DNA of 64,000 nucleotides, taken from contig JAHJHG010000006.1 in NCBI GenBank assembly GCA_018823885.1, positions 10,752 to 74,751 of the forward strand. Reading direction: 5' to 3'. A model generated the notes under the pieces. That model was not told where the DNA came from, searched no databases, and saw only the letters and a list, made by a program, of their open reading frames with translations. The translations under genes and the position numbers were made by a program. Of the stretch, positions 3,605 through 39,255 are shown in pieces (position 1 is the first letter of the stretch; the number at the start of each line of letters is the position of its first letter). This DNA is from Patescibacteria group bacterium (GTDB taxonomy: Bacteria; Patescibacteriota; Microgenomatia; UBA8517).

Positions 3605-5848
3605 CTATATCATTCCTGCAAAGATATTTTCAACTTCTTCCTGATTTAAAACCCCTGTTATTATTCTTTTAACGATTCCCTTTCTGTCTAAGAAGTAATG
3701 AGTCGGAAGTGAGTATATACTGTAATCTTCTATCAACCTTCCGTCAGCATCTATTACAATAGGTAAACTATAATTCCCTCGTTTAGCAAAAATGGAAACT
3801 TTAGAGCTTGTTTCCTGAGTTGAAACTACTGCCATCTGAGTATCCCCACCTGTCATATTGTTAAGAACGGCTAGTTGTTCCAAAGATGGAGATGACCAAG
3901 TACTGATAAAAGTCAGTAATAAAGGCTTTCCCCGCGTGTCAGTTAACCCAAACTCACCATCAATAGTAGGCAGAGTAAATACAGGGGCTTCCTTTCCTAA
4001 TATATCCCACTTCGCTGCTTCTACCGGTATGACTGGGGTACTAATATTGACATTCGCTTTATCTCCGGAAAAATCAGGTAAGGTGAAAACAAAGGGCCCC
4101 AGATTAATCCGTCTGCCAACTTCAAGCTCGAAATCAGCATTGATGGGAGCGGGGACTGAAAGAGTAAATATCTTGCTGGTTAGAGTTGTATAACCGGAGG
4201 AACTGATTCTAAAATAGTATGTACCAGGTGGTAAAAAGTATTGGTAGTTTCCACTCTCATCTGTTTCTTGCGGGTTTTCTTGACCAAAAGGTTTTGCATC
4301 CCAAAGCGTCCAAATCTCACTTAATGGATCCTTGTAATAAGCACTAACTTTGGCCTCTTTGGGTGGCTTCTGAGTATCTTTTGCCACCACTTTACCTGGA
4401 CTAAGAACAACAACTGAATTAAGAATTCTTTCCGTTTCGTTCTCGGCACCATCTTTTGCTTTTACCAGCAACTCATAAAATCCTGGATCGGGAAAGTTAA
4501 TTGTTCCGGACCAAAGACCTGTTTCCGGTGAACGAGGTAAAGAATACATGGCGTCATTGGCATATAAATCAATAGAAGTCGGACCACCAACAGTTGACAA
4601 TGTAATTCTTTGTTCTAACCCTGCCATGGTCACTATTACCCCATCTTTATTCGGCATTAGTATTAAAGGGCCCAAAGAAAGAAGGTTTCCTCCAACCAAT
4701 GGAGGAAGGCGGTCTATTATTAAAGTATGTGTTTTTGAAGTACCCCTGTTCCCTGCTCCATCTGTAGCTCTAACCACTATTTCATAATTACCATCATCAA
4801 AGATTTCGGGAACAAAACTAAATTCCGTCGAAGTTGCTCCAGGGTCGATAATTTCATCAACGGGTAACCAATTGACTCCCCCATCCGTTGAATAATCAAC
4901 TCCAGCTATTCTTGATTTATCCGAAGCCCTTCCTGTTATTAATGGTGGTTGTTCAAAAGGATCATCAAAATCCGTAGTGATAGTAACACTTGGTGGTATT
5001 TTATCCGTTGGGGCTTTAACAATGATTGTTTGTGTCGTTGTCACTGTTTGTGTCGTTGTCACTGTAGTCGCCATACCAACACTGGTAGCCGTACCAGTTG
5101 TAAAAGAATTTTCAGTAGTACAACCCTGATTCCCTGCTGCATCTGTACTGCAAGCCCGATAATAGTAGGTTGTACTAGCCCCTAAATTGTCTGGAGAAAG
5201 CGAATGAGAGGTTGACAATGTCGCGCTATTTTTGTTAAGAGAATATATTCCTGTTTCTAAGCCATATTCGACTAAAGAAGTTGCCGACTCGCTACTTGTC
5301 CAAGCCACCACCGCAGATGAGCTTCCTATACTTGAAACACTTAAATTCGATATTGTGGGGGCGGTAATATCAGTCCCCCCGGTAACATTAAACGCCAAGT
5401 TGCCCGAACAAGAAAAAGAATTCGCTCCTCCTGCGTCATCCGAAACCTCCACTGACCAATTTCCAGAAGCCCCAGCAATATCGCCAATGTCAGCTGAAAT
5501 ATTAGGAGTAATAGTTCCTCCTGCAGCAAGAGGGTCCTGATAATACCTATATGTTATTGAGTCGCTAGCCCAATCTGTATACCAAGCTGGATAGACTGAA
5601 GCCCCCTTAAAAGTTACGCCATCGTTCGGTCTAGTAATTTTAAACCATAAAACATCGGCCGCATCTGTATTGTTTAACGTAAAAATAAAAGCAATCCCAT
5701 TAACATTGGCCTCTGGATCATTTGGGGTAACGGAAACAGAGCAAGAACTAATGATCGCTTCTGCCGGTTTTATAAATTCAAAACGAAGAAATGCAACAAA
5801 AGCAAAAACAAAAATAATCGCCAAATATTTTTTAGTCCGAGCAGGCAT
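3605..5848 (-). CDS. Secreted multidomain protein: signal peptide, fibronectin-III-like, Ig-like and carboxypeptidase-regulatory-like beta-sandwich domains, and a C-terminal thioredoxin/TlpA-like fold without a CXXC motif
   Basis: The 747-aa ORF begins with an N-terminal signal peptide (MPARTKKYLAIIFVFAFVAFL...AEA). An FN3-like segment (PTISNLSVSSIGSSSAVVAWTSSE...) is followed by a Thr-rich repeat (TTVTTTQTVTTTQT). The C-terminal about 110 aa resembles a redoxin/TlpA fold, but the active-site position reads WSSPS instead of CxxC. Confidence 0.55.
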   Translation of the reverse strand: MPARTKKYLAIIFVFAFVAFLRFEFIKPAEAIISSCSVSVTPNDPEANVNGIAFIFTLNNTDAADVLWFKITRPNDGVTFKGASVYPAWYTDWASDSITYRYYQDPLAAGGTITPNISADIGDIAGASGNWSVEVSDDAGGANSFSCSGNLAFNVTGGTDITAPTISNLSVSSIGSSSAVVAWTSSESATSLVEYGLETGIYSLNKNSATLSTSHSLSPDNLGASTTYYYRACSTDAAGNQGCTTENSFTTGTATSVGMATTVTTTQTVTTTQTIIVKAPTDKIPPSVTITTDFDDPFEQPPLITGRASDKSRIAGVDYSTDGGVNWLPVDEIIDPGATSTEFSFVPEIFDDGNYEIVVRATDGAGNRGTSKTHTLIIDRLPPLVGGNLLSLGPLILMPNKDGVIVTMAGLEQRITLSTVGGPTSIDLYANDAMYSLPRSPETGLWSGTINFPDPGFYELLVKAKDGAENETERILNSVVVLSPGKVVAKDTQKPPKEAKVSAYYKDPLSEIWTLWDAKPFGQENPQETDESGNYQYFLPPGTYYFRISSSGYTTLTSKIFTLSVPAPINADFELEVGRRINLGPFVFTLPDFSGDKANVNISTPVIPVEAAKWDILGKEAPVFTLPTIDGEFGLTDTRGKPLLLTFISTWSSPSLEQLAVLNNMTGGDTQMAVVSTQETSSKVSIFAKRGNYSLPIVIDADGRLIEDYSIYSLPTHYFLDRKGIVKRIITGVLNQEEVENIFAGMI
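5028..5063. repeat. Perfect tandem 2 x 18-bp repeat (tgtttgtgtcgttgtcac) inside the 747-aa secreted-protein gene
   Basis: The repeat is seen directly in the sequence. It encodes the duplicated TTTQTV hexapeptide on the minus strand, and its length of 18 is a multiple of 3. Confidence 0.8.
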
Positions 5849-5933
5849 TACTTTATTCTACTATGGAAAATGTTACCGACAAAGAACCCTTGAACAAAAC
5901 CACACAACCCCGCTATTATTAAAATATACTTAT

Positions 5934-6389
5934 ATGGTTGGTGTTGTTACATTTTGGGAAACTTTTATCGGAGTAGATAATCCAATCTACATTGGAGATA
6001 TATGGGCTAACACCATAAGACCACTTGGTGGTACCCATTTATTTTATGTTGACCAGCAAGGAATAGGAACACCGAGCATAGATGCTTCTATCGTTTCTAA
6101 AACCTATTCTACTTTCCAAGAAGTATTGGATGACAACCCCGATGCAACCTATGTGTTTCTTGAGGCTGAAAGGAGTATTCCAAAAGGTACCGATTTTACT
6201 TACTTAAAAGACTTTGTTCATCCCAAAGAAGACGTCATTTATGTTTTCGGCAAAGATAGTTCTGATGTGTTCACAGAGAACCTGCCACTTGAAGGAAATC
6301 ATGTTGTATCAATTACCACAAATGATAATCTTGTGCTCTGGTCATTAATAACAGTCGGTATCGTTCTGTATGATAGAAAGGTTAAATAA
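5934..6389 (+). CDS. Hypothetical protein, first gene of the beta-helix cluster; the start is uncertain
   Basis: The ORF runs 5670..6389, but its first 180 nt overlap the convergent 747-aa gene. The first in-frame ATG outside that overlap is at 5934 (151 aa). Its stop, TAA, overlaps the ATG of the next gene (taATGg), which suggests translational coupling. Confidence 0.35.
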   Translation: MVGVVTFWETFIGVDNPIYIGDIWANTIRPLGGTHLFYVDQQGIGTPSIDASIVSKTYSTFQEVLDDNPDATYVFLEAERSIPKGTDFTYLKDFVHPKEDVIYVFGKDSSDVFTENLPLEGNHVVSITTNDNLVLWSLITVGIVLYDRKVK

Positions 6390-8500
6390 TGGCATTTTCA
6401 ATTACATCAGATATGACCACTATTGATACTTGTTCTGATACCACAAACTGGTCAGGAACTATTACTCCTACGCAAGACACTGAGGTGTTTATTGAGGGCG
6501 CCGCCTCAGTCGGAATGGTAAAAGTATCACAGGGGAAATTTATTGAAAAATTTGATTATTATACTGAAAAAGCAAGCAATTATTATAATGCTTCTACTAA
6601 TCCTACTCATTTATATTTTTGGGTAAATGTCTCCAACGGCGGTGGACTTTATCCGCTGTCTAGTGGAACAGAATCTACAGAAGGCGGAGTTAGACTATAT
6701 ATGGAAGACAGCGCTGGTGCTTATGTTGAGTGGTACGTTGCAGGTTCAGACACTTACTCTGGTGGTTGGAGATGTTTCGTAGCCTACACCGATGCCGCGC
6801 CCAATAACTCATCTGGTTCAATTAACAAATCACAAATTCGATATTTTGGTGTAACTCTAAATATGCAAGCTAAAACCACAGCTAACGTGAGAAATGCTTG
6901 GATAGATTTTATCAGATATGGTTCAGGTCTCATTTGTAGTGGAACCGACACGGGCCAAATGACTTGGGATGATATTTATGCCGGTGATCTTGCGGGTCCA
7001 CATGGGGTTATTAGAAAAGAAGGTGGAATTTTCTTCGTACAAGGATCGGTCACCATAGGCGACAATATTGGAACAAGTGCAACAGATTTCAGTGATGCTA
7101 ACCAAGTTCTCGTATTTGAAGACGCAAACGTTTCAAGTACTTTATATAACATTACAATCGTCGGCAATGCCACAGGAGATACTGATTTTCAAATGGGAAC
7201 CAAATCGGGTACGGCAGGAATTTCAGGATGCATTATCAGGTCGGCTGGTATAAATAAATATGATTTCACTTGTACCGATACTGCAGTCGAAGAGCTGTTG
7301 TTATACGGGTGTACTTTTTATGATGCGGACGTTATTTCTCTCCCGGCCTATTCCGCCTCGGCTCCACTTAGAGAAGTATTAAACTGCAACTTTGAGGCGT
7401 GTAATCAGGTTGATCCTGATACTTGTACAGTAACTAATTGTAATTTCATTAACGCTGATGACAGAGGGTGTTTGATAGATACTTCATCTCACCATATTAC
7501 CGATTCAAATTTTATTGCCTGTCCAGACGCAGTACATATTAATACTGCTGATACTTATACTTTTTCTGGTCTTATCTTCACCAACAACACCTATGACGTA
7601 GAAAACTCATCTGCCGGTGTCGTAAATATTAACGTATCCGGAACTGGAGCGGCTTCCTCAGCTGAAAATACTGGTGGGGGCTCTACAAACTTTATTTCGT
7701 CCGTTGATGTAGATGCCAAAGTACTAAACGATGCAGGCTCAAATATAGAAAATGCGCAAGTGTATATTCAAAAATCCGATACTGGAAAACAATGGAATTA
7801 TGTTTCTCATTCTGGAAATGCATTAAACGACACTGACTTTGTGGTTACTGGAGCAATTGACGATGATTTGCCCTCATCAGGGTGGATACACGTTTGGGAC
7901 AAATCAGATAATTCCAAGCAGAATTATAGATATACCGGATGGGCAACGGCAACAGATACAACTTTTACACTAAAAACTAATGTAACAGGAAGTGCAACAA
8001 GTGAAGATGGAACAAGCCCAGAAATAAAATTAATTTCTACATCGTCTGATTTTATAGCAATGAAAACGGCTGGGACTATTGAAGAAGGAGACTCAATTTA
8101 TAATTCAACTGATTTAAGCTGGGCTATTGTAGACGAAATAGTAGATGCAGACAATGTAACTACAACTCCACTACAAGGTGGTTCGGACAATAAATGGCAA
8201 GCCAGTGATGGATTCAGTCTACATAAATTAGTAAAGGCTTATACTCTCACCGATGATAAAATAGACATTCCCCTATTCAACGGACAGACTGATTCAAACG
8301 GAGAAATATCAACCTCATATAACTATGGAGAAATTGGAAATCCTCCTGGTCAGTCTGGTTATACTTCCCTGCCCATTTGGATCAGAATTAGATCAAACCA
8401 AGGTACACCTAAATATATTCCATACAACACGAGCGGAACCATAACAGGAAGTGGATACGATTTAACGGCGGTTATCACAGAAGACGATGTAGCAACATAA
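6389..8500 (+). CDS. Right-handed parallel beta-helix repeat protein (pectate-lyase / tailspike-like fold)
   Basis: The 703-aa ORF has repeated short beta-helix rungs rich in N, C, T, I and V (NITIVGNATGD; CIIRSAGIN; NCNFEACNQVD; VTNCNFINADDRGCLIDTSSHHITDSNFIACPDAVHIN). There is no N-terminal signal peptide. Confidence 0.6.
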   Translation: MAFSITSDMTTIDTCSDTTNWSGTITPTQDTEVFIEGAASVGMVKVSQGKFIEKFDYYTEKASNYYNASTNPTHLYFWVNVSNGGGLYPLSSGTESTEGGVRLYMEDSAGAYVEWYVAGSDTYSGGWRCFVAYTDAAPNNSSGSINKSQIRYFGVTLNMQAKTTANVRNAWIDFIRYGSGLICSGTDTGQMTWDDIYAGDLAGPHGVIRKEGGIFFVQGSVTIGDNIGTSATDFSDANQVLVFEDANVSSTLYNITIVGNATGDTDFQMGTKSGTAGISGCIIRSAGINKYDFTCTDTAVEELLLYGCTFYDADVISLPAYSASAPLREVLNCNFEACNQVDPDTCTVTNCNFINADDRGCLIDTSSHHITDSNFIACPDAVHINTADTYTFSGLIFTNNTYDVENSSAGVVNINVSGTGAASSAENTGGGSTNFISSVDVDAKVLNDAGSNIENAQVYIQKSDTGKQWNYVSHSGNALNDTDFVVTGAIDDDLPSSGWIHVWDKSDNSKQNYRYTGWATATDTTFTLKTNVTGSATSEDGTSPEIKLISTSSDFIAMKTAGTIEEGDSIYNSTDLSWAIVDEIVDADNVTTTPLQGGSDNKWQASDGFSLHKLVKAYTLTDDKIDIPLFNGQTDSNGEISTSYNYGEIGNPPGQSGYTSLPIWIRIRSNQGTPKYIPYNTSGTITGSGYDLTAVITEDDVAT

Positions 8501-8567
8501 AAATGGGTCTTGATTATATTAGGAGAAATGTCTCATTATAGTTTATAGTTAATTACAGGACAAAAAT

Positions 8568-8909
8568 ATGAAAATAAAACTAATTAGTTATCCCTATAAG
8601 GATTATGAAGTTGGAGAGATTGTTGATCTTGGTGAAGACAAAAATAGGTCGATGGTGTCTTTGCAAAGAGCTGTTTGGGTTGAAGAAGAAGAGAAAAAGA
8701 AAAGGACACCAAAAAAGACCGTTACAAAAACAGCCACGCAAACACAAGACGATGTAATTGAAGAAGAAGAAAAACCAGCAAAAGAGACCGAAGAAGTTGA
8801 AGAAACAAAAAAGCCGACTCGAGGACCAGACGGGAAATTTGTAAGCAAAGAGGAAACAGAAAATACAGAAAAACCTAAAAAAAAAGGCTTTCTGAGTAGG
8901 CTGAGGTAA
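8568..8909 (+). CDS. Lys/Glu-rich low-complexity hypothetical protein
   Basis: The 113-aa ORF is highly charged low-complexity sequence (EEEEKKKRTPKK...EEEEKPAKETEE). It sits in the same orientation as the flanking large genes. Confidence 0.4.
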   Translation: MKIKLISYPYKDYEVGEIVDLGEDKNRSMVSLQRAVWVEEEEKKKRTPKKTVTKTATQTQDDVIEEEEKPAKETEEVEETKKPTRGPDGKFVSKEETENTEKPKKKGFLSRLR

Positions 8910-8921
8910 AACAAGAGTAGG

Positions 8922-9122
8922 ATGGAAATTTTTAATTTACACTCTAATAATAAAAAGAAAATTAAAGGCTTGAAAGTTACGTCACACAAAGAATATGATA
9001 AGAACGGGAAGAAGCGTACCAATCGGTACGTAGAGTTTACGGTTGTCGGAAAAAATCGACAATGGAAAGATTTTATGCCGGTTGAAGACTTTAAAAAATT
9101 GAATCCCGAGATTAATATCTAA
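8922..9122 (+). CDS. Small basic hypothetical protein
   Basis: This 66-aa ORF fills the gap between the KE-rich gene and the 982-aa gene on the same strand. Confidence 0.3.
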   Translation: MEIFNLHSNNKKKIKGLKVTSHKEYDKNGKKRTNRYVEFTVVGKNRQWKDFMPVEDFKKLNPEINI

Positions 9123-9127
9123 CTGCC

Positions 9128-12076
9128 ATGGCAATACAAAACGATTTTACAGTCTACCCTACATCAAAAGTAATTAGGCATACTTCTGGAACAACCGTTT
9201 ACTCAGCGGTTGCTTTCTACTCCTGGTTAATGAACACTTTTGACGAGCCAGGATACTTGACCTATGAAACCCCGATAAGGTTCAACACACCAACTTCGTT
9301 CACGATGATTAATGGCTGGTTTCTAGACGATGGGGATGGCAATCCCGCTGACACGGAAGATGGCCACATTCTTAAATATATAACTGGTGGTGGTATTGAT
9401 ACCTCCGGTTATGCCACAGTTTCTGATCCTATCTATATGGCAGACCTGGCTACTTCTACAGTCGATTTTGTCTACACAGATAAAGACCTACAAGTAACGT
9501 CTGGAGCAGCCGTGGGCCCACTACTGGCCTATAAAAATGATTACCCCACTTCCGCCCGCATTCGTATTTGGGTCAGAGATACTGAATCACACGGAGCACT
9601 CGCCACATCAACTGTCACAGAGGTCACCACTGCGGGAGGTTCGGGAACGGGTACTACTGATGGCACCACAGCATCTGTAAGCGGTGATGAGATTTACCAC
9701 AATCTGTTTACCATTGCGTCCTTTCCAACTGACGTTTATCCCCAGGTATATGTCTATCAACGACACCCTGTAACAACACAAAGTTATAACACCAGAGTCC
9801 GCATAGCGGAGTGGTCTGGTTTTACCAACTGGGACAGAGGTTCGGATGGAATTGATGTCCTCATTCCAGTCAAGCTAGGTGGTACAGCTGTTGACGGTGG
9901 CAACCTTACAGCTTTCGTCCGCGAAACTGGCGACACCTACACTTTTGTTAAGTCTACACTGACATCATCAGGTAGAACCCCTATCGCTACTGAAACTTCC
10001 GCTGACGAGGTAAATATTACTGAAGGTGAACACTATTTGCTTTACGACGGTTCTGATACTGGCTCATTTTCCGCTGATGATGTCATTACCGACAGCGATG
10101 TTTCAACGGGTGTCCCCCCCTCCTGGTACGCCGAGGTAGTTGAGGTAGATGAATTTACTGCCACTGCCACCGGTTTGCTCACAATTCGGTCTTTGCACGG
10201 AACCATTTCAGACAATGACGATATTTATGTCACCGCTTATTCTGCTGGTGCACCGGTGAGCGTACTTGAGGGTACAGTTAATGGTACTGTGGGCGACACA
10301 CTTGTGACACACACTGGAGCTGGTACTGAACCGGTTATAGGAGACATTGATTTACCTTTTGAAGGGGGTACTAGTGGAGCACACCGAGTCTTGAGAGGGT
10401 ATGATAATGCTGAAAACAAGCTTGTTATGCAGGTATATCATACATTTGGCACTCTCGACTCTCAGGTTTATACCGGATCGGGCAGAGATGCTCTTTACAT
10501 AGATTTTTCATTAACTGAAGTAGTAGACGCTCCAGCCAGTGGTACTGGTCTCATGAGTGTAACCACATCAGCAGTTAGCACTACTTTAATCTCTGGATTT
10601 TCTGATGTCACAGTGGCTCATATGAACGGTACTGTAACAGTCAGTGGTATTGCCAACGGCCCACTTATTCTTGGAGATAGATTCACGTACAACACAGGGG
10701 CCCAATCTGGGATCTTAATTTATGCCGATAGCCTAACTGCCCCCACATCTCTCATGCTCGGGAATATTGATCCTGACAATGAACCAGATGCGTCAGACCA
10801 ATTTGCTTTCCAGCTCGCCGGATCTGGTGCATGTACTGTCGACTGTGACTCTGTTTTGACTGATAATAATTCACAAAATTTTGAATTTACTCTTCAATCG
10901 ACTGGGGCGCTTTACACTATTTTTATTGAAGGAGGATCCATTTACAACGCTGGTCGAAGTCTTGCCGATATCTATGCATATTTGCAATACTACGTTCGAG
11001 ACGGCCAGAATATATCCGAGAGAACTATCTATACCAGCGATGGCACTGCCATTACAAAATTAGCGGCCGAAGAATATATCAAGGCAGTCGATGTAACTGC
11101 TTATTCTGCAACCAAACCAGCACCGTTCGGAACCTTAGCTGGAACCACTTTCTTCGGTGCCCAAGGTGTGTGGCTGCAGGGCATGACAAGCACTGACAAC
11201 AACAACATAAAATTCATTGATGCTGGTACAAGCCCCACTTGGGTAGGAACTCTCCGAGAGCCTGATCCATCTATAAACTTAACGATAAGTAACACTAGGG
11301 TTGGCGATAGAATAGCAGTCTACCTAGAAAGTGGCTCTACTACTTTGCCTGACAAAGCTCAATACACGAGCCATGCCACACTTAATGCTCAAAGTGACTC
11401 AACTTTTGATAGAAATGCCTCTGATGGTGCATTCCCCATCGACACACCAACTTTTGGAACTTTTATCGCAGTTGCCACTGATGAAAGCGAGGAGCACAGA
11501 TATAGATATACTTCTTATAACGCAACTGGTGGTGGTGGTTCCGATGGACAATTAGTGTTACCGACTGAAAGGACGGGAACGGCGACAGCTGGTTCTACTG
11601 GACAAACTTTGGTAGCTTCGGCTGCAACGTTTGTTAGCTGGGTCGACCAGAATGGATTAACAACCCAAATTGGAGATATTATCAGAAGAACCAATAATGA
11701 GGGTGGGTGGGCGTATATCACCAGCATCGATTCAGAAACACAAGTTACGACAACACTATTTAACGCTGGCATCACTCAGGGTTGGGATGATACTGCAACA
11801 GCTGATACATTTGAGATGCTCTCTTTAGTGCAATTATATGATGACAGCGATACTTTCTTTATCCCTTATATGGACTTTAGAGAATCCGCTGGAACGGATG
11901 GTTCCCCGGGTTCAGAAACAGTAACAGTATTGTATTATGCAAATCGAGAAGTAGTAATTGAGGTTCGCAACGTCGAAGCTTCCACTCAGATTATTCCTTT
12001 CAAAACCACCGGAACTATTTCTTCAACAGGTTTGACTCAGTCTGTAATTAGAAACGAAGATACTGTTTACACTTAA
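9128..12076 (+). CDS. Large Thr/Gly/Ser/Asp-rich hypothetical structural protein (fibre/adhesin-like), no signal peptide
   Basis: The 982-aa ORF has a composition typical of beta-sandwich fibre or adhesin proteins. It shares its strand with the beta-helix genes, and no catalytic motifs were recognised. Confidence 0.55.
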   Translation: MAIQNDFTVYPTSKVIRHTSGTTVYSAVAFYSWLMNTFDEPGYLTYETPIRFNTPTSFTMINGWFLDDGDGNPADTEDGHILKYITGGGIDTSGYATVSDPIYMADLATSTVDFVYTDKDLQVTSGAAVGPLLAYKNDYPTSARIRIWVRDTESHGALATSTVTEVTTAGGSGTGTTDGTTASVSGDEIYHNLFTIASFPTDVYPQVYVYQRHPVTTQSYNTRVRIAEWSGFTNWDRGSDGIDVLIPVKLGGTAVDGGNLTAFVRETGDTYTFVKSTLTSSGRTPIATETSADEVNITEGEHYLLYDGSDTGSFSADDVITDSDVSTGVPPSWYAEVVEVDEFTATATGLLTIRSLHGTISDNDDIYVTAYSAGAPVSVLEGTVNGTVGDTLVTHTGAGTEPVIGDIDLPFEGGTSGAHRVLRGYDNAENKLVMQVYHTFGTLDSQVYTGSGRDALYIDFSLTEVVDAPASGTGLMSVTTSAVSTTLISGFSDVTVAHMNGTVTVSGIANGPLILGDRFTYNTGAQSGILIYADSLTAPTSLMLGNIDPDNEPDASDQFAFQLAGSGACTVDCDSVLTDNNSQNFEFTLQSTGALYTIFIEGGSIYNAGRSLADIYAYLQYYVRDGQNISERTIYTSDGTAITKLAAEEYIKAVDVTAYSATKPAPFGTLAGTTFFGAQGVWLQGMTSTDNNNIKFIDAGTSPTWVGTLREPDPSINLTISNTRVGDRIAVYLESGSTTLPDKAQYTSHATLNAQSDSTFDRNASDGAFPIDTPTFGTFIAVATDESEEHRYRYTSYNATGGGGSDGQLVLPTERTGTATAGSTGQTLVASAATFVSWVDQNGLTTQIGDIIRRTNNEGGWAYITSIDSETQVTTTLFNAGITQGWDDTATADTFEMLSLVQLYDDSDTFFIPYMDFRESAGTDGSPGSETVTVLYYANREVVIEVRNVEASTQIIPFKTTGTISSTGLTQSVIRNEDTVYT

Positions 12077-12082
12077 ACCCAA

Positions 12083-12565
12083 TTAGTTTGATTTTGAAGG
12101 AGATCTAAGCTTCTCTAAGATTATTCTCGTTTCAAGTGCTTTTTTAGTCTCACCTGTAAAATAATATACTTGGCCAAGATTATAGTATGCTTCCCGGTAC
12201 TTCGGATATATTTTAATCGCTCTTTTGTAAAAAAATTCAGCCTCCTTAAGTCGATCTGTACTCATGTAAACATTTCCCAAGTTATTATAGACTACTCCAC
12301 TATTCGGCTTTATTTTTAAAGCTTTGACATAAATATTTTCTGCTTCCTTAAAAAGCCCCGCACATTTATAGGCCACTCCAAGATTGCAGTAAGCCTTAAA
12401 GTAATCAGGCATAATTTTAATAGCCTGTTTATAACTGGCAATGGCTTTGGGATATTCCCTCTTTTTCAAAAAATCGTTGCCAGCCTGATAGTACACTTTT
12501 GCCTGCTGCTGCTTCATTTTGTAAATTGTACCATTTAAGATGACGAACACTTTGACTTCGAGCAA
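12083..12565 (-). CDS. Tetratricopeptide (TPR) repeat protein
   Basis: The 160-aa ORF contains about four 34-aa repeats with the W/LG/Y and A/F/AP signature (AIASYKQAIKIMPDYFKAYCNLGVAY...). Confidence 0.7.
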   Translation of the reverse strand: MLEVKVFVILNGTIYKMKQQQAKVYYQAGNDFLKKREYPKAIASYKQAIKIMPDYFKAYCNLGVAYKCAGLFKEAENIYVKALKIKPNSGVVYNNLGNVYMSTDRLKEAEFFYKRAIKIYPKYREAYYNLGQVYYFTGETKKALETRIILEKLRSPSKSN

Positions 12566-12657
12566 TCTGCTGCTACAGGCGATTATTATTAGTTTAAGCT
12601 CCTAATGCCGTTAACAACTAGATTTGAAGGAATTCTTCCGACATAATAGTATGAGTT

Positions 12658-13977
12658 ATGGCAATAAGAGTAAATCCTTACGTTAGCCCTAGAATTATAG
12701 AGGTTCAAGCACCCCTTACAGAAATCTCTATTCAAGACTTAACTGACCAAATAAAAGACTGGGAAGACGAACCAGCCGATCTTGCCTTTCCTATTTTGAT
12801 TAGAACGTACGGAAAACAACCTCTTGGTGGCGGATCTTTCGTGGGAATAACAGCTGTATTACAAAACGCAAAAATTTCTTTTGAAGCTAGGGACGGATTA
12901 GATACTCCACCCGAGGTTTTATGTACTATCTCCGGAGGAAATTTAGTTGCCGTTGACGATGTTGGTGCCTCAATGAACCCTATTCACCCAACTGCTTATA
13001 CTCAAGTTGTTATTGCCCAGTCAACCTCTCCTTCTATTATTACTCCACCCGAAGACCTTAACATGCTTTACCTTATTGAATCTCTAAGAGGTACTGGTAA
13101 ATCTTTGGGGAGTATTTTCTACTGGGATCCGGAAGGTGGAAGCGATACAAACGATGGGAGCCAACCTAGTGAAGCTGTTCAAACCTTTGCCGCAGCACAG
13201 GCATTGACGACAGCCGGAGCGGGAGATATTATTTTTGCTCTCTCAACCCACTCAAGTGGAATCACAACTACCTCTGAAAAACTAAGCATTACTACCGCGG
13301 GCCTGAAAGTAAGAGGCCCTGGCTACAGACTTCAATTGATTCCATCGGCCACCGGTTCCCCTACCGTCAATATCTCAGCCAACTCTGCTGAATTTGAGGG
13401 TTTTTATATCGAAACGAAGAGTGGAGGAACAGACAACGGAATCACAGCGACTGGAAATAATGTGGTGATTAAAGACTGTTGGGTAAATTCTGCCACTGGT
13501 AATGGAATTGATATTTCCTCGACCAGTAGAACTGAAATTAATACTTGCGTGATTGAAGAGAGTGTTGGTTACGGAATCAATGTGGGGGCAACAACAAGTC
13601 TCTCAACAATTCGAAAATGTATCATCTCTGGCAACTCCGAAGGAGTATATATTGCGGGGGCCAGCATTACGGACAACATATTGGAAAACAATATAATTTA
13701 CAACAACACGACCAGCGGAATTGAAATTGGCAACGGAGTGGTCAGAACCGGGATTCGATTGCATCATACTTTTGCCGCCAATAACCCCAATATCACTGAC
13801 GATGGAACAGGGACTTATCAAGACACATCAGGGACAATCGAGCAAGGGGATATCGACAACATTGTTAGTGGGGTTTGGGATGAAGTAATTTCAGCTACAG
13901 CTCATGCGGGTGCCGGAAGTGCCGGAAAGACATTGAGGGACGCGAAAACGAAAGCCACCCTTGCTTCCCTTAAGTAA
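12658..13977 (+). CDS. Right-handed parallel beta-helix repeat protein (second tailspike-like paralog)
   Basis: The 439-aa ORF has consecutive beta-helix rungs (NGITATGNNVVIKDCWVNSATGNGIDISSTSRTEINTCVIEESVGYGINVGATTS...CIISGNSEGVYIAGASITDNILENNIIYNNTTSGIEIGNG). There is no signal peptide. Confidence 0.65.
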   Translation: MAIRVNPYVSPRIIEVQAPLTEISIQDLTDQIKDWEDEPADLAFPILIRTYGKQPLGGGSFVGITAVLQNAKISFEARDGLDTPPEVLCTISGGNLVAVDDVGASMNPIHPTAYTQVVIAQSTSPSIITPPEDLNMLYLIESLRGTGKSLGSIFYWDPEGGSDTNDGSQPSEAVQTFAAAQALTTAGAGDIIFALSTHSSGITTTSEKLSITTAGLKVRGPGYRLQLIPSATGSPTVNISANSAEFEGFYIETKSGGTDNGITATGNNVVIKDCWVNSATGNGIDISSTSRTEINTCVIEESVGYGINVGATTSLSTIRKCIISGNSEGVYIAGASITDNILENNIIYNNTTSGIEIGNGVVRTGIRLHHTFAANNPNITDDGTGTYQDTSGTIEQGDIDNIVSGVWDEVISATAHAGAGSAGKTLRDAKTKATLASLK

Positions 13978-14512
13978 TATGAGCTATCTCTAACTCGTAG
14001 GCCATTTTTTCTCCTATAAATTTAATCTTTGCGAGCTCTACCTCATTCAACTCTTCATTGGCTCCACCAATTCCAATTCTTACTTTCCAGAAATCTTTGC
14101 TGTTTAATTTCTTCTCCATTTTCAAAATTGCTTCCGGGGCAGAACCTAAATTTTTACTTATATCAAACTGGCCAAAAGTAAGGTTTTCGTCAGGATAAAT
14201 AATATAAAAGTCTTCGGGAATCACTCTGTAAAACGCGTAGAGACCAAAGGCAACATCATCAAACTTGTCTGTAGGGGTCCTAGGCTTAACCACCATCGTC
14301 AAAGGATTCAGATTGGTAGTCATGAGCATATATTTTGATCTCATCGCCCAGCCGCTTACCATGGCGTTAGGATATAGCTTTCTCACTTTTTCCACGGCAT
14401 AATCAATAATCATATAACCCACATTGCTTCGGGCTTTTGCATACCGTATTCCGGGGTTCCCGTAAGCAATAATCAGTCTTACTTTTTCCTCTATATTCTT
14501 TTCCTCTGTCAT
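13970..14512 (-). CDS. Divergent peptidyl-tRNA hydrolase (Pth)-like paralog with the catalytic His position substituted
   Basis: The 180-aa ORF aligns by eye to the canonical Pth in this same window: N-terminus LIIAYGNPGIRYAKARSNVGYMIIDY against [26 protein letters not shown], and C-terminal motif DFWKVRIGIGG against DFWRVRIGVDN. The His of the conserved R-H-N motif reads Ser here (ARSN). Confidence 0.6.
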   Translation of the reverse strand: MTEEKNIEEKVRLIIAYGNPGIRYAKARSNVGYMIIDYAVEKVRKLYPNAMVSGWAMRSKYMLMTTNLNPLTMVVKPRTPTDKFDDVAFGLYAFYRVIPEDFYIIYPDENLTFGQFDISKNLGSAPEAILKMEKKLNSKDFWKVRIGIGGANEELNEVELAKIKFIGEKMAYELEIAHIT

Positions 14513-14599
14513 CTCTTTTAAGTCCCCATTCTTTCAAAATATGATAGCATTTTTTCCCCTCTTGCTTTTGGAAAATATTTCTTTTACCATCTTACTAGA

Positions 14600-14791
14600 A
14601 TGCCAGCCTTCTTAAAAAACATCGGAGCAGTCGAGCTCATCATCATTGCCCTCATTCTTGTTCTTCTTTTCGGAGGTAAAAAGTTTAAGGAATTAGCTCG
14701 TGGACTTGGAGAGTCAAAACACGAAGCGAAAAAACTTAAAGAAGAAATTATAGGCAAGGGCAAGAAGGATTCTGAAGAAGACGCTTCTTGA
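14600..14791 (+). CDS. tatA: Twin-arginine translocase subunit TatA/E family (copy 1, subtype a)
   Basis: The 63-aa product has a single N-terminal TM helix (GAVELIIIALILVLLFGGKKF) followed by an amphipathic basic helix. This is the classic TatA architecture. Confidence 0.8.
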   Translation: MPAFLKNIGAVELIIIALILVLLFGGKKFKELARGLGESKHEAKKLKEEIIGKGKKDSEEDAS

Positions 14792-14841
14792 CTAGTTGCC
14801 ACAAACAAGTAAGAATTAATAAGTAAGGGAGGTGGTAGATA

Positions 14842-14985
14842 GTGATCAAGAATCTAGGAACAACTGAACTAATAATTATCGCTTTAATCTTAATACTTCT
14901 ATTTGGTGGCAAAAAGATACCTGAGTTTATAAAGGGTGTCGGAGAGGCTGTTAAAGAATTCCGAAAGGCGTCTAAAGAAGACTAA
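14842..14985 (+). CDS. tatA: TatA family protein (copy 2, subtype b), GTG start
   Basis: The 47-aa product reads VIKNLGTTELIIIALILILLFGGKKIPEFIKGVGEAVKEFRKASKED. An AAGGGAGG RBS lies 10 nt upstream. An in-frame stop lies immediately upstream of the GTG, so no ATG start is possible. The product is too short for the ORF track. Confidence 0.65.
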   Translation: MIKNLGTTELIIIALILILLFGGKKIPEFIKGVGEAVKEFRKASKED

Positions 14986-14991
14986 TTTTCT

Positions 14992-15198
14992 ATGCTAAAA
15001 AACTTAGGAACGGTTGAATTTGTGGTTATCGGAGTAATCGCAGTTCTTTTGTTTGGAAGCAAAAGAATAACAGATGTGGCCAAAGGCCTGGGCAAGTCAA
15101 CAAAGGAATTCAAAAAAGCACAAAGTGAATACGAAAAAACAGTTAACAAAGATGTCTCCGAAGAAGAGTCGGAAGACAAAGATAAGGAGGTGACATAG
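14992..15198 (+). CDS. tatA: TatA family protein (copy 3, subtype a)
   Basis: The 68-aa product begins MLKNLGTVEFVVIGVIAVLLFGSKRITDVAKGLGKSTKEFKK. Confidence 0.8.
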   Translation: MLKNLGTVEFVVIGVIAVLLFGSKRITDVAKGLGKSTKEFKKAQSEYEKTVNKDVSEEESEDKDKEVT

Positions 15199-15351
15199 AT
15201 GTTTGGAAAACTTGGAGCATTAGAATTAATTATTATCGCTTTTGTCTTAATCCTACTTTTCGGTGGCAAAAAGATCCCTGAATTAGTTCGCGGAATCGGT
15301 GAGGCCGTTCGTGAATTTAAAAAGGGTGCCAAAGAAGAAAAAAAAGATTAA
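15199..15351 (+). CDS. tatA: TatA family protein (copy 4, subtype b)
   Basis: The 50-aa product reads MFGKLGALELIIIAFVLILLFGGKKIPELVRGIGEAVREFKKGAKEEKKD. A GGAGGTG RBS sits 6 nt upstream. The sequence was found by manual translation. Confidence 0.75.
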   Translation: MFGKLGALELIIIAFVLILLFGGKKIPELVRGIGEAVREFKKGAKEEKKD

Positions 15352-15412
15352 ATTACTCCTCTTGCACATATCCCCCTGTTTAACTTATCATTAGACAAAT
15401 TAGCTTTTATCT

Positions 15413-15577
15413 ATGTTAAATAACGTTGGACCGGCTGAAATGATAATCATTGGTATTGTGGCTCTTTTCCTTTTCGGAAACAAGAAACTGTCCGAATTGG
15501 CTCGAGGCCTCGGGGAGTCAACTAAAGAATTTAAAAAGATTAAAAAAGACATTGGAAAAGAAATTGATACAGACTAA
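15413..15577 (+). CDS. tatA: TatA family protein (copy 5, subtype a)
   Basis: The 54-aa product reads MLNNVGPAEMIIIGIVALFLFGNKKLSELARGLGESTKEFKKIKKDIGKEIDTD. It was found by manual translation. Confidence 0.75.
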   Translation: MLNNVGPAEMIIIGIVALFLFGNKKLSELARGLGESTKEFKKIKKDIGKEIDTD

Positions 15578-15609
15578 TAAATATTTAAGACCGGAAGGGG
15601 GTGTTATAA

Positions 15610-15762
15610 ATGCCTAGTCGATTTGGAGCATTAGAAATTGCCATTATCGCTTTGATTCTTATATTGCTTTTTGGTGGTAAAAAGATCCCTGAATTAATAA
15701 AGGGGGTCGGAAAAGGAATCCGAGAGTATCGCAAAGCGTCAAAAGAAGAGAAAAAGGAATAA
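15610..15762 (+). CDS. tatA: TatA family protein (copy 6, subtype b)
   Basis: The 50-aa product reads MPSRFGALEIAIIALILILLFGGKKIPELIKGVGKGIREYRKASKEEKKE. A GGAAGGGGG RBS lies upstream, and the stop abuts the tatC ATG. Confidence 0.75.
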   Translation: MPSRFGALEIAIIALILILLFGGKKIPELIKGVGKGIREYRKASKEEKKE

Positions 15763-16506
15763 ATGGACGATATATATAATCGCTTCTTCCCGTACCTTAT
15801 GGAGGTTCGAAAAAGGCTGTTTTTTATAGCCTCTATTTTTCTTATTTCATCCGCCCTGGGTTTCATCTATTACGAGAAGATAATCACCACCAGCCTGGGT
15901 ATTTTTAATCTTGAGGGAATAAATATTGTTTTTACCTCTCCTTTTCAATTTTTAGAACTTTCAATTAATTCCGGCCTCCTGGTCGGTTTGATTGCTGTTT
16001 TCCCTCTGATAATAGTTCAGGTCCTGTCATTCTTAAAACCCGCCTTAAAGAAAAGCGAATTTAAGCTGGTTATTTCTCTCTTGCCCTTAAGTATCTTTCT
16101 TTTTATCTTCGGATTTACCTACGGCATCTTTATCATGAGATATGTCTTGGTTATCTTCTATGAGAAGTCCTTAGCGCTTTCCATTGGCAACTTCTTAGAT
16201 GTTAGCAAGTTCCTCTCTCAGATTCTGCTTACCTCGGCTCTAATGGGCCTAGCCTTCCAATTTCCTGTTATCTTGACAGTCCTAATGCGCCTAAGAGTAA
16301 TAACGTATAGCGCCCTTTCAAAACAAAGAATGATCGCTTACTCCTCCTCAATTATCTTTGCCGCCTTTTTGCCACCTACCGACCTGCTCTCTCTTGCCCT
16401 TTTAACAGTCCCTCTTGTAATACTTTTCGAAACTACGCTATTATTAAACAAGGTGGTATTCAAAGCCCCCCTTAAACCAAAAAAGGAGGTGAAACGTAAT
16501 GTTTAA
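15763..16506 (+). CDS. tatC: Twin-arginine translocase subunit TatC
   Basis: The 247-aa product has 6 predicted TM helices. It shows TatC-like conserved stretches (FLKPAL, PPTDLLS), and its ATG sits 1 nt after the stop of the sixth tatA. Confidence 0.85.
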   Translation: MDDIYNRFFPYLMEVRKRLFFIASIFLISSALGFIYYEKIITTSLGIFNLEGINIVFTSPFQFLELSINSGLLVGLIAVFPLIIVQVLSFLKPALKKSEFKLVISLLPLSIFLFIFGFTYGIFIMRYVLVIFYEKSLALSIGNFLDVSKFLSQILLTSALMGLAFQFPVILTVLMRLRVITYSALSKQRMIAYSSSIIFAAFLPPTDLLSLALLTVPLVILFETTLLLNKVVFKAPLKPKKEVKRNV

Positions 16507-16657
16507 AACAATTGGATCAACAGAACTACTAATAATTGCCATAATATTACTTATTCTTTTTGGAGGAAGAAAGCTTCCAGAGCTTGGAAAAGGAATGGGA
16601 GAATCTGTAAAGGAATTTAGAAAATCTTTAAAGAAAGAACCTAAAACCAAAAAGTAA
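16499..16657 (+). CDS. tatA: TatA family protein (copy 7)
   Basis: The 52-aa product reads MFKTIGSTELLIIAIILLILFGGRKLPELGKGMGESVKEFRKSLKKEPKTKK. It overlaps the tatC stop by 8 nt, and an AAAGGAGGTG RBS lies inside the tatC 3' end. Confidence 0.75.
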   Translation: MFKTIGSTELLIIAIILLILFGGRKLPELGKGMGESVKEFRKSLKKEPKTKK

Positions 16658-16662
16658 TTCCT

Positions 16663-17046
16663 TTGCTAACCCCTCTACTCGCCTTAATAGCACCATTCAT
16701 TGTTTGGCCTATTGAGTTAATATTGCCATATCCTCACATCATTGAGGAGTTGGCAAAAGCGGTTCTTGTTTTTACCCTACTGGATCTTCCGGATCGTTTA
16801 ACGAAAATCAAACTTACGATCTTAATCGGAGTACTTTTTGCATTCTCCGAATCAGTCCTCTATCTTTTCAATATTCAAATGGTCGGCATTATGCGGACAT
16901 ATTTTGTCAGACTTCTTGTCACCATTCCACTTCATGTCATCACAACATTAATCATTTTATTACCGGCCCTGAAAAATAAGAAATTAATTATTGTCGGAGT
17001 TTTATTTGCTTCCCTAATCCACTACCTCTTCAATTTATACATCTAA
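16663..17046 (+). CDS. Small integral membrane protein (about 4 TM helices)
   Basis: The 127-aa ORF is hydrophobic throughout and lies directly downstream of the tat array. Confidence 0.4.
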   Translation: MLTPLLALIAPFIVWPIELILPYPHIIEELAKAVLVFTLLDLPDRLTKIKLTILIGVLFAFSESVLYLFNIQMVGIMRTYFVRLLVTIPLHVITTLIILLPALKNKKLIIVGVLFASLIHYLFNLYI

Positions 17047-17107
17047 TAACAGTAAACAAGAGATACATTGATAAATAGTTGGCTATACTATTATATATAT
17101 TGATATA

Positions 17108-17608
17108 TTATAGTTGCCAAGATAAGAAGGCAGTGCTCAAATCTTCATCTGAAAAATCCTGAATGATATTTGCTTTCTTCTTTTTATAAAAATTTAGAGC
17201 GGCCGGACTTCTATCACTAACATATGCATAGATTTCTCTAATCCCCTTATCTTTTGTAAAAGCTAATACTTTTTCAAATAATTTATTGCTGTACCCCTCT
17301 CCTCTAAGTTCTGGTTTGACATACATGTACATCAACTCAAACGGATCTGGGTCCATCTGAAAATCATTCTTAACCCATCCTTCTTCTTTAAAGGTCTGTC
17401 CCCACACTTTCATTTTGGCTGGTGAGTGACCAATAACCACAAAGCCAATTCTTTCTCCTTTTTTGTTTTCTTGAAAAATAACATATACCTTGGAGTTTCT
17501 TTCCTCGTCGCTTAAATCAAATTCCTTATTTATTCTTTTAACAAAATGTGAATAGGCTTTATCATCGCCAACAATATCAGCGATCTCCCGTATCTCGTCT
17601 CTGCTCAT
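17108..17608 (-). CDS. GNAT family N-acetyltransferase
   Basis: The 166-aa ORF has an acetyl-CoA-binding motif A-like segment (RGEGYSNKLFEKVLAFTKDKG) and GNAT-like topology. Confidence 0.65.
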   Translation of the reverse strand: MSRDEIREIADIVGDDKAYSHFVKRINKEFDLSDEERNSKVYVIFQENKKGERIGFVVIGHSPAKMKVWGQTFKEEGWVKNDFQMDPDPFELMYMYVKPELRGEGYSNKLFEKVLAFTKDKGIREIYAYVSDRSPAALNFYKKKKANIIQDFSDEDLSTAFLSWQL

Positions 17609-17665
17609 AAAACTATTATGAAACAGGAAAGAATAATTAGAAAGTATTAATTGAAGTCTTACTTA

Positions 17666-20443: not shown

Positions 20444-20450
20444 ATTTTAC

Positions 20451-20597
20451 CTACACCTTCTCTTTCGCTACTCGCCGGAGTTCAGAGACAGACTCTCCTA
20501 CTCCCTTGGCAAGTTCTGGCAGCTTCTTGCCGCCAAAGAGAACAAAAAGCATCACAGCTATTACGCCTAGCTCTGTTGCTCCTATGTTATTTAACAT
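20451..20597 (-). CDS. tatA: TatA family protein (copy 8), immediately upstream of the 925-aa gene
   Basis: Manual translation of the minus strand gives MLNNIGATELGVIAVMLFVLFGGKKLPELAKGVGESVSELRRVAKEKV (48 aa). A GGGAGGTG RBS lies upstream, and the stop is 5 nt from the next ATG. The antisense ORF 20401..20664 shows the characteristic mirror sequence (SGSFLPPKR). Confidence 0.7.
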   Translation of the reverse strand: MLNNIGATELGVIAVMLFVLFGGKKLPELAKGVGESVSELRRVAKEKV

Positions 20598-20827
20598 GCA
20601 GTCAATCACCTCCCTTCTAATAAGTTGGCTGGGTTTCCAACAGGTAAAACCAAAGTGTATTTAGTTGGGCAGGATTTTCCGTGAAAACCCAGCTGTCTCC
20701 AGTATTGACTGTTATTTGATATATTGTCAAGGGGCATTTTCTATCCAATTTTTCTTATCATAATCTTATCATATTTTGTTATTCTAGCCTCAAATTTAGG
20801 AAATTATTCCAAGATTGACTCTGTGAT

Positions 20828-33209: not shown

Positions 33210-33289
33210 ATTTTTATGGTTAATAGATTTTCTCTATTAACCACATATGTTAATGTTTTTTGTTCTCTGAAAACTGAAGGGAATGGGTC

Positions 33290-36511
<3,222 letters not shown>

Positions 36512-36538
36512 TTTCCCTTCAGATGTCAAAGAACAAAG

Positions 36539-39210: not shown

Positions 39211-39255
39211 TTATTAACTTTAATAGTGCTTCCTCTCTTGAATAATCCCATAATC

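Follow-up and report, generated by a model that had tools for sequence, protein, structure and literature searches.

Why does a Patescibacteria chromosome carry a set of spike-like and fibre-like proteins that resemble the receptor-binding end of a phage? An earlier note had raised this question for positions 5934-13977 of the stretch of DNA analysed here (64,000 nucleotides, hereafter the window). The host belongs to the Microgenomatia, a large class of ultra-small, presumably partner-dependent bacteria. Conserved lineage-specific genes of Patescibacteria are mostly unannotated and, to our knowledge, the mode of cell contact is unknown for most of these organisms, the type IV pili of Saccharibacteria excepted. 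The explanation that we favour, with somewhat more belief than doubt, is the domestication of a phage receptor-binding module (tail fibre/tailspike), now resident and selected on the chromosome of Microgenomatia-type Patescibacteria. In the literature on Patescibacteria tail fibres, tailspikes, prophages and Tat, we found no description of this locus.

The cluster contains six plus-strand ORFs, all intact and with exactly the sizes and positions reported before. The first, w151, encodes a small protein (5934..6389; 151 aa if the first ATG is taken as the start, whereas the mechanical ORF begins at the TTG at 5670). It shares a TAATG stop/start overlap with the next gene at 6387-6391, which had been placed at 6389. 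This next gene encodes the spike-like protein W703 (6389..8500, 703 aa), composed of a CBM-like jelly roll (residues 1-185), a right-handed beta-helix (about 200-430) and C-terminal sandwich domains that are paralogous to the C-terminus of W982. It is followed by w113 (8568..8909, 113 aa), a small acidic/lysine-rich protein of which about 40 N-terminal residues are conserved, and by w66 (8922..9122, 66 aa), a small conserved partner that adjoins the fibre gene. W982 (9128..12076, 982 aa) is a multi-domain, all-beta, fibre-like protein and is Thr/Gly-rich as described (Thr 14.6%, Gly 9.8%). The last ORF encodes the beta-helix protein W439 (12658..13977, 439 aa), which is matched by Pfam Beta_helix/NosD, so that W703 and W439 are both beta-helical, as had been proposed. 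The statement that the cluster lies on one strand holds for these six ORFs, but not for a small TPR protein inside the cluster, which is encoded on the minus strand (12083..12565, 160 aa; Pfam TPR_1 E 1e-29).

In agreement with the earlier note, all checks for secretion signals in the cluster proteins were negative. The peak 15-residue Kyte-Doolittle hydropathy of the first 50 residues was 0.5-1.3, compared to 2.6-2.7 in two neighbours whose signal peptides are obvious. No RR was present in the first 40 residues of any cluster protein, no Tat signal (S/T-R-R-x-F-L-K plus a hydrophobic stretch) in the first 50 residues, and none of the proteins had membrane-spanning segments. Sortase anchoring was rejected, as the proteins have no LPXTG-type C-terminus. 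The folds of the cluster proteins nevertheless suggest an extracellular location.

When W703, W982 and W439 were compared with Pfam, PHROGs, NCBIfam, PADLOC and PDB, only generic beta-helix and TPR matches were obtained, and the cluster proteins had no sequence-level match to characterised tailspikes. A tblastn search of 50,697 GenBank phage records matched W703 once, and weakly, but neither W982 nor W439; the phage link derives solely from metagenomic contigs. The order 151-like, 703-like, 66-like, 982-like and W439 N-domain recurs in contigs with portal, protease and major head genes. All cluster proteins have blastp matches in L006 and L007 with conserved order, and L007 also has Pfam SU10_adaptor and Gp80 matches. 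In L018, the W982/W439 homologues lie four genes downstream of genes for head morphogenesis and major head proteins (E 1e-20), in L029 portal and major head genes are followed by W703-W982-W439, and matches to minor tail and tail spike proteins were obtained in L016. The W703/W982/w66 module is also found in virus-like contigs assigned to archaeal bins (L042, L052, L063) and in Desulfarculales prophages with portal and head protease genes (L061, portal E 1e-125, and L062). Judged from these alignments, the cluster is phage-related by homology and gene order, beyond the mere appearance or fold resemblance to tailspike and tail-fibre genes that had been noticed at first.

A virion structural module accompanies the homologues in L018, L029, L061 and L007, but not the cluster in the window or the Tat-linked CPR loci. 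Neither Pfam searches of 29 neighbouring ORFs across the 64-kb window nor PHROG searches of the six plus-strand cluster proteins detected a capsid, portal, terminase, sheath, tube or integrase gene, so that the reported absence of other phage genes extends to the flanking regions within the window. Baseplate and tape-measure genes, like tube and sheath genes, were absent from the Pfam matches of the cluster and its neighbours and from the PHROG matches of the cluster proteins. Long direct repeats flanking the cluster were not found. A DGR was rejected for the window, as the scanned ORFs contain no RT domain and positions 5000-21000 contain no repeat pair except the tatA copies.

The W982/W439 pair is located at one conserved chromosomal site next to tatA/tatC in many Microgenomatia species, without head or packaging genes. 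We found 47 loci in species-representative genomes, including Pace-, Ames-, Collier-, Roizman-, Shapiro-, Gottesman- and Levyibacteria as well as a complete genome of the Beckwith- lineage. In the window, W439 is separated by pth from the plus-strand Tat genes (14600..16657), which comprise five tatA paralogues, tatC (15763-16506; Pfam TatC E 1.5e-36) and a sixth tatA, all tatA copies being TatA-type sequences. With an additional tatA-like repeat copy (14851-14981, repeat family D1), the window has six or seven tatA copies; the equivalent array in L068/L069 has Pfam TatA_B_E matches. Among 24 testable CPR loci, tatC is less than 5 kb from W439 in 20 and not nearby in four, and in L047 it overlaps the end of W439. 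This operon-level linkage is a concrete lead on the export route, although it could be inherited gene order instead of function.

Besides tatC, the genes that recur downstream across loci encode PrsW-like, SH3 and Fic/HTH proteins. Their counterparts in the window, assigned with Pfam/NCBIfam, are a PrsW-like membrane protein (16663-17046, plus strand; together with W982/W439 in 17 fetched loci), a 925-aa signal-peptide protein with C-terminal SH3 domains (17666-20443, minus strand; SH3 protein in 19 fetched loci) and a Fic/wHTH protein (20828-21805, plus strand; in eight fetched loci). A GNAT protein (17108-17608, minus strand) accompanies W982/W439 in five fetched loci. Pfam was uninformative for the families conserved upstream at other CPR loci (membrane families f8, f9 and f33; f10, f17, f20 and the giant f29), and a suspected pilin identity was rejected because no prepilin motif was found. 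Separately, bAvd-like genes were observed at the equivalent locus in relatives.

Strong conservation was found in W439, which consists of an N-terminal domain of about 125 residues, a conserved CPR-specific beta-helix and a conserved C-terminal tail. Its N-domain (1 to about 125) aligns with phage-contig proteins of 315-896 aa whose remaining parts differ, and by identity comparison the beta-helix is confined to the CPR copies. W439 has the right-handed parallel beta-helix body of tailspikes and pectin-lyase-fold proteins, and it combines an N-terminal module (putatively anchoring) common to virion-borne homologues with a variable distal part. Its profile gave weak PDB matches to LnbX, mannuronan epimerase and NosD. 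There are more than 450 homologues, and the best 120 of these are 411-452 aa long (nearly all 431-452) with at least 52% identity. At 64 positions conservation is at least 97%, including D190, E245, E300, E343, R363 and R367; the acidic helix residues E245, E300 and E343 are candidates for glycan-binding or depolymerase activity. The dN/dS values were 0.07-0.09 for W439, 0.08-0.14 for tatC and 0.12 for pth, and W439 therefore evolves as slowly as its housekeeping neighbours. Across 20 species, mean pairwise identity was 55% for W439 versus 44% for TatC, and the distances of the two proteins were modestly correlated (Mantel r 0.31).

These data bear on the first of three options in the earlier note, a cryptic prophage remnant, in which the cluster would be the tail end of a degraded prophage without function for the cell. 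The homology to phage tail-module proteins and the lack of other phage genes in the window would fit such a remnant, and the related locus L004, with a tyrosine recombinase upstream and more unknown plus-strand genes downstream, could be a real prophage. However, we consider it hardly credible for the window, given the intact ORFs, an orthologous locus whose host flanks are shared by many species from different candidate phyla, and a W439 that is uniform in length among its best homologues and more conserved than TatC. Nor is the composition atypical, as GC3 (0.29-0.37) and RSCU correlation (r 0.76-0.87) in the cluster are within the host-gene range. The conserved locus, selection and host-like codons instead make a domesticated apparatus the best supported of the three options, the third being proteins that leave by a non-classical export route. 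Conserved synteny in relatives had been named as an argument against a viral reading if the homologues were ordinary surface glycosidases. Synteny is indeed present, but the homologues are not ordinary signal-bearing glycosidases, and therefore the core interpretation stands.

W982 showed a different pattern. Its conserved parts (the N-terminal region 1 to about 310, and 600-760) are combined with variable stretches (361-480 and 521-600) and C-terminal sandwich domains. No global structural match was found and the resemblance to baseplate or fibre proteins is weak and at the fold level only, 'fibre' being a description. The family occurs in several length types, which made its distance correlation with TatC uninformative, and is carried by 13 IMG/VR contigs; in 43 of 50 loci, W982 is followed by W439 or its N-domain within four genes. 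W982 diverges much faster than W439 and in this lineage groups with phage copies, the window protein being 48-50% identical to those in L008-L011 versus 30-36% to other Tat-linked CPR W982. The locus is therefore a mosaic of a stable spike gene (W439) and a fibre slot (W982) that exchanges with phages. The closeness of W982 to phage copies and the retained putative anchor domains could also mean that the cassette serves a phage life cycle, either used in trans by phages or satellites (host-range switching) or as a piece of a dispersed phage-like particle. This is very improbable in our view, because no gene for a head, portal, terminase, tube or sheath protein was found in the 64 kb, the genes conserved alongside are cellular ones (tat, PrsW-like, SH3 protein) and the beta-helix of W439 is specific to the CPR copies.

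In the N-domain NJ tree, the CPR W439 sequences form one cluster among several deeper phage branches. The suggested direction of transfer, from phage to cell, rests on such unrooted or midpoint-rooted trees of short domains. As these are not reliably rooted, W982 and W439 might instead be ancestral Patescibacteria surface-fibre proteins that CPR phages captured, entirely or as anchor domains; the very large and uniform chromosomal W439 family and the W982 modules inside giant cellular proteins (2,000-4,000 aa) would agree with this. We find a cellular origin rather unlikely, since the W703/W982/w66 module occurs far outside Patescibacteria, the deep branches belong to phages, and all components are without the signal peptides normal for cellular surface proteins.

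The smaller genes travel with the module. In phage contigs w151 is always directly upstream of the 703-like gene (blastp match in L007, E 1e-8). It matched nothing in Pfam or PHROG, whereas its profile, built on seven homologues from phage-like contigs, was weakly SPOUT-methyltransferase-like against PDB (SpoU rRNA methylase 4cnf, E 0.002; TrmL 4pzk, E 0.11). For w113, PHROG matches were found to two families of unknown function (phrog_19684, E 2.8e-6; phrog_829, E 1.3e-3), and orthologues are upstream of w66/W982 in L002, L022, L024 and L025. The w66 family, known from 20 loci on CPR chromosomes and phage contigs (L006, L008, L009, L011, L013, L015, L019, L020 and L042), always adjoins W703/W982. 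Orthologues of the TPR protein adjoin W439 or W982 in eight distinct further loci of different clades (10 loci counting the window and one duplicate contig), and a role as assembly chaperone is possible.

The core of the set is intact across a whole bacterial class, and therefore the cell seems to have taken over viral equipment for attachment. In the mechanism that we propose, W982 would form an elongated, probably trimeric, multi-domain fibre, on which W439 may dock via the N-terminal domain in common with phage spikes, as gene order and the shared N-domains suggest. W439 would present its conserved pectin-lyase-fold beta-helix and bind or cleave a conserved polysaccharide. W703 might act as a second spike, with its CBM-like domain, beta-helix and C-terminal domain paralogous to that of W982, and the small proteins and the TPR protein could help assembly. 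The complex would work outside the cell, and its target would be either the glycans of the cell's envelope or the surface of a partner. The most speculative step is the exit through the adjacent tatA-expanded Tat system, with a non-canonical or piggy-back signal; we infer this route because the proteins would fold and oligomerise in the cytoplasm without Sec signals. A bolder version would make the locus a Microgenomatia surface fibre-and-spike organelle from domesticated phage receptor-binding proteins, exported pre-folded via a dedicated tatA-amplified Tat system without canonical twin-arginine, binding or digesting partner-cell envelope glycans, and with a fibre gene periodically renewed by recombination with infecting phages. 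As a whole, we regard this version as doubtful.

The exchange with phages could also point to an anti-phage function, in which the cell's own surface receptor is destroyed or masked by a receptor-modifying depolymerase, or intracellular decoys mis-assemble with incoming tails. Related phages with compatible modules exist, the absence of export signals suits an intracellular decoy, and in L022 and L024 the locus contains inserted AbiE toxin-antitoxin genes. Moreover, unconventional defences are plausible because CRISPR is absent from most CPR genomes, according to PMC4742961. Still, we think an anti-phage role unlikely. In PADLOC, only the TPR protein was matched, by generic TPR models, and none of the other six proteins. 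The beta-helix of W439 is more strongly conserved than would be expected of a gene in an arms race, and the Tat operon link favours export over a cytoplasmic decoy.

If our preferred reading of a domesticated receptor-binding module is correct, the locus is a concrete, widely conserved and testable cell-contact candidate for Microgenomatia, with a phage-derived fibre and a highly conserved, putatively glycan-active spike. It also raises the question what the Tat cargo is in organisms where obvious Tat substrates are scarce, and for what reason tatA has been amplified. The stable spike and the phage-exchanging fibre gene show that genes move between the chromosomes of CPR bacteria and the phages of these bacteria, and the locus may help to assign uncultivated phages to CPR hosts.

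Among known systems, the tailspikes and fibres of tailed phages (P22, CBA120 TSPs, phi29 gp12, Klebsiella and Acinetobacter capsule depolymerases) differ from the window locus, which has no virion genes, a fixed chromosomal site by tatAC in many species and housekeeping-level constraint. To the anchor domains of branched multi-spike adsorption complexes (CBA120, phiK64-1/RaK2-type), no sequence homology of the cluster was detected. A precedent is WceF (PDB 6tgf) from Pantoea stewartii, a chromosomally encoded trimer with the tailspike fold and a Tat export signal (PMC7949094). This glycan-modifying enzyme resembles the cluster proteins by fold only, and its Tat signal is N-terminal and cleavable, whereas the cluster proteins have none and their Tat link is genomic adjacency only. 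Furthermore, WceF comes from a single gene within an exopolysaccharide cluster, while here a whole multi-gene phage module with retained putative anchor domains is found next to tat genes and not EPS genes. Tailocins (R- and F-type), eCIS/PLTS and gene transfer agents are similar in that phage structural genes are under selection in cells and fibres set the target specificity. However, these systems keep a tube, sheath, baseplate or head, whereas the window locus keeps the receptor-binding end alone, which would make it an unusual case of domesticated phage genes.

When the sequence was re-read, the ORF sizes, the strands and the TAATG overlap at 6389 were as the earlier note had given them. 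Six genes lie on the plus strand between 5934 and 13977 and encode, named after their length in amino acids, w151 (5934-6389), W703, w113, w66, W982 and W439, of which W982 is fibre-like and W703 and W439 are beta-helix spike-like proteins. A small TPR gene (12083-12565) is located between W982 and W439 on the minus strand. The reported lack of secretion signals was confirmed for all six plus-strand proteins, which have no hydrophobic N-terminus, RR motif, membrane segment or sortase signal; two secreted proteins encoded nearby served as positive controls. The absence of other phage genes held as well, as no head, portal, terminase, tube, sheath or integrase gene was found with Pfam in the neighbouring ORFs of the window or with PHROGs in the six cluster proteins.

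Upstream, the cluster is bordered by a methyltransferase, a two-component system and a secreted redoxin-domain protein, and downstream by pth, a tatA/tatC array, PrsW-like and GNAT genes, a 925-aa SH3 protein, a Fic/HTH protein, an M23 peptidase and Rho. The remaining genes of the window are housekeeping and envelope genes. The window is a piece of a Patescibacteria chromosome with a 23S rRNA gene (33287-36508, minus strand) containing a group I intron (34307-34536), a 16S rRNA gene (42912-44374, minus strand) about 6 kb away, a 5S rRNA gene and six tRNA genes. The gap between 16S and 23S in this rRNA region (33091-44374) holds tRNA-Ala, tRNA-Ile and three plus-strand protein genes, one of which (36991-39210) encodes an ATPase resembling type IV secretion coupling proteins. 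A 983-aa polytopic membrane protein (24562-27513, minus strand) has no Pfam match and is unlike any cluster protein.

Curated libraries and GenBank phages gave almost no matches for the cluster proteins, whereas metagenomic relatives did reveal a link to phages. Two of the fetched loci (L006 and L007) carry homologues of w151, W703, W982, w66 and the N-domain of W439 in matching order, and L007 additionally encodes SU10-adaptor and Gp80 domains. Homologues of W982 were found in 13 IMG/VR contigs, within long co-directional gene arrays. In L018, head-morphogenesis and major head protein genes (PHROG E 1e-20) are located four genes 5′ of the W982/W439 homologues, and in L029 portal and major head genes are followed by W703-W982-W439. 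Two Desulfarculales prophages (L061 and L062) encode a portal (E 1e-125) and a head protease and, downstream of these, a relative of W982 that is short and the W439 N-domain as a protein of its own. L016 gave matches to minor tail and tail spike proteins and L008 to phage-type RNA ligases, while the w151/W703/W982/w66 set is also present on virus-like contigs binned with archaea (L042, L052 and L063). In 43 of 50 cases across the fetched loci as a whole, W439 or its N-domain is encoded no more than four genes downstream of W982. What the phage versions of W439 share with the W439 of Patescibacteria (CPR) is confined to the N-terminal ~125 residues plus a short motif at the C-terminus, and their middle parts are variable, with total lengths of 315-896 aa. 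This apparently constant anchor with a variable, putatively receptor-binding body is the usual pattern of spikes. As judged from sequence, the relationship of the cluster to phages is one of homology plus synteny.

To what extent the locus is conserved became clear from a scan of one genome per species, which gave 47 loci, including those of Pace-, Ames-, Collier-, Roizman-, Shapiro-, Gottesman- and Levyibacteria and of the complete Beckwithbacteria genome CP011210. The nearest named relative of the W982 gene is found in a Pacebacteria MAG (68% identity). When all neighbouring ORFs were clustered, the families travelling with W982/W439 were tatC (24 loci), a large SH3 protein (19), a PrsW-like protein (17) and tatA (13). 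Downstream sequence of 3 kb or more was available for 24 CPR-type loci, and in 20 of these tatC is located within 5 kb of W439. Often just one tatA separates the two genes, and in CP011210 they overlap at the end of W439. In L068 and L069, which are closely related to the window, the order is W439-pth-(5-7 tatA)-tatC. The window itself harbours six tatA paralogues (14600-14791, 14992-15198, 15199-15351, 15413-15577, 15610-15762 and 16499-16657), a seventh tatA-like repeat copy (14851-14981) and a single tatC (15763-16506) flanked by tatA copies, all on the plus strand; such a tatA amplification (14600-16657), with 5-7 copies in the close relatives, is unusual. The 925-aa protein (17666-20443, minus strand), whose family is the one accompanying W439/tatC in 19 loci, has, besides its C-terminal SH3 domains, a signal peptide and a hydrophobic segment around residue 703, and its large N-terminal part is without a family match.

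More than 452 homologues of W439 were found, and the best 120 are 411-452 aa long (431-452 aa in nearly all), at least 52% identical and encoded on contigs up to complete-genome size. Mean pairwise identity over 20 species was 55% for W439 compared to 44% for TatC. Against two relatives (85-87% protein identity), dN/dS was 0.07-0.09 for W439, 0.08-0.14 for tatC and 0.12 for pth. In GC3 and in relative codon usage, the cluster genes stay inside the range of the remaining genes, and the raised GC content of W982 and W439 stems from second codon positions and hence from amino-acid composition. The option of a prophage remnant raised in the earlier note is contradicted by the conserved site, the low dN/dS of W439 and the host-like codon usage. 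Together with the uniformity of W439 these exclude a decaying prophage, and the conservation of the locus rules out a non-functional remnant. The locus is a stable cellular locus. That it acts in trans for phages, or represents a dispersed particle-forming element, seems unlikely. An anti-phage role, by receptor modification or as an assembly decoy, is conceivable, but it received no support from PADLOC and is not easily squared with how strongly W439 is conserved.

The fibre gene behaves differently from the spike gene. Genome pairs with 85-87% identity in W439 have just 47-50% in the C-terminal part of W982, and the most variable residues of the W982 family are 361-480 and 521-600. At other CPR loci linked to Tat, W982 is of a different type, with a length of either about 657 or about 1,027 aa, and at some of them the upstream slot is filled by giant proteins of 2,000-3,700 aa. 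A profile search found W982 modules in 2,298 cluster representatives, giant proteins among them. In a neighbour-joining tree of the W982 N-module, the window copy groups with phage/IMG-VR copies (L008-L011) and not with other Tat-linked W982, while in a distance tree the CPR W439 N-domains form one cluster amid deeper phage branches. The simplest reading is that the spike gene was acquired long ago and then descended vertically, whereas recombination with infecting phages replaced both the fibre gene and the w151/W703 part upstream of it; this history is provisional, since both trees are distance-based and midpoint-rooted. A cellular origin with later capture by phages would be compatible with unrooted trees, but is disfavoured because the module is also found in viruses and prophages far outside Patescibacteria.

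Several further features of the locus vary between relatives. The W703 slot of other Microgenomatia holds giants of 2,000-3,700 aa that lack a signal and partly match the W982 N-terminal module (5′ of W982 homologues in L037, 2051-10822; L054, 3136-9999; L039; L040), and the N-terminal ~90 residues of W982 also exist as separate ORFs of ~85-115 aa (family f21). Genes for bAvd/23S-rRNA-IVS-like four-helix bundles are inserted between the W982 and W439 homologues in L026, L027, L041 and L046, and in L002, where W703 is split, such a gene (6363-6773) lies between its halves. A reverse transcriptase was not seen in the vicinity of these genes. Insertions just 5′ of the fibre genes, present in some relatives (L022, 7460-9418; L024, 215-2665; L038, 4165-5304), comprise AbiEi/AbiEii-like toxin-antitoxin genes, an IS200-type Y1 transposase and an AAA ATPase, and mark the upstream edge of the locus as an insertion hotspot.

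W439 matches Pfam Beta_helix/NosD, and its family profile has weak matches to beta-helix glycan enzymes. The AF2 model of W982 is a chain of all-beta domains (pLDDT 82.8, pTM 0.74); Foldseek alignments to viral models were long with low TM, the targets being large Caudovirales structural proteins. W703 and W982 are paralogous over their C-terminal ~210 residues. The w151 family, whose profile weakly matches SPOUT methyltransferases (SpoU methylase 4cnf, E 0.002), resembles a minimal SPOUT fold. In phage contigs its gene is always the one directly upstream of the W703-type spike, which is odd company for a structural gene. The TPR protein (133-168 aa) recurs beside W439 in L002, L021, L025, L044, L054, L056 and L066, which span different CPR clades, and its gene is opposite in strand wherever W439 is also found; it may be an assembly chaperone. 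The motif RGP(D/N)G(K/R)FVSK is common to the C-terminal part of w113 (8568-8909) and the N-terminus of f20 (L036-L039), a ~170-aa protein whose gene lies, in other CPR loci, between those for W982 and W439.

Phage-module homology, a conserved chromosomal site, purifying selection, beta-helix folds, the lack of classical signals and the tat linkage are established. In the mechanism that we propose, W982 would form an elongated oligomeric fibre on which W439 docks via the N-domain shared with phage spikes, with W703 as another putative spike, and assembly would be aided by the TPR protein together with the small proteins. D190, E245, E300, E343, R363 and R367 of W439 show at least 97% conservation over 120 orthologues, and its conserved beta-helix would bind or cleave a conserved polysaccharide. 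More speculatively, the folded complex might exit the cell via the adjacent Tat system. Tat has been reported in Microgenomatia in a study of freshwater CPR in which substrates were not named (PMC9166423).

In the sources searched, the cluster proteins are named only 'hypothetical' or 'right-handed parallel beta-helix repeat-containing protein', and no description of the locus was found in the literature searched. A precedent is WceF of Pantoea, a chromosomal tailspike-fold trimer with a Tat signal (PMC7949094), from which it follows that tailspike-fold proteins can bear a Tat export signal. In contrast to WceF, none of the six plus-strand cluster proteins has a twin-arginine signal. Domestication of phage tail parts is an already known theme. 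The present locus differs from the known cases in that the receptor-binding module alone is retained, is fixed across a class-level lineage and is linked to an amplified Tat system, while its fibre appears still to be exchanged with phages.
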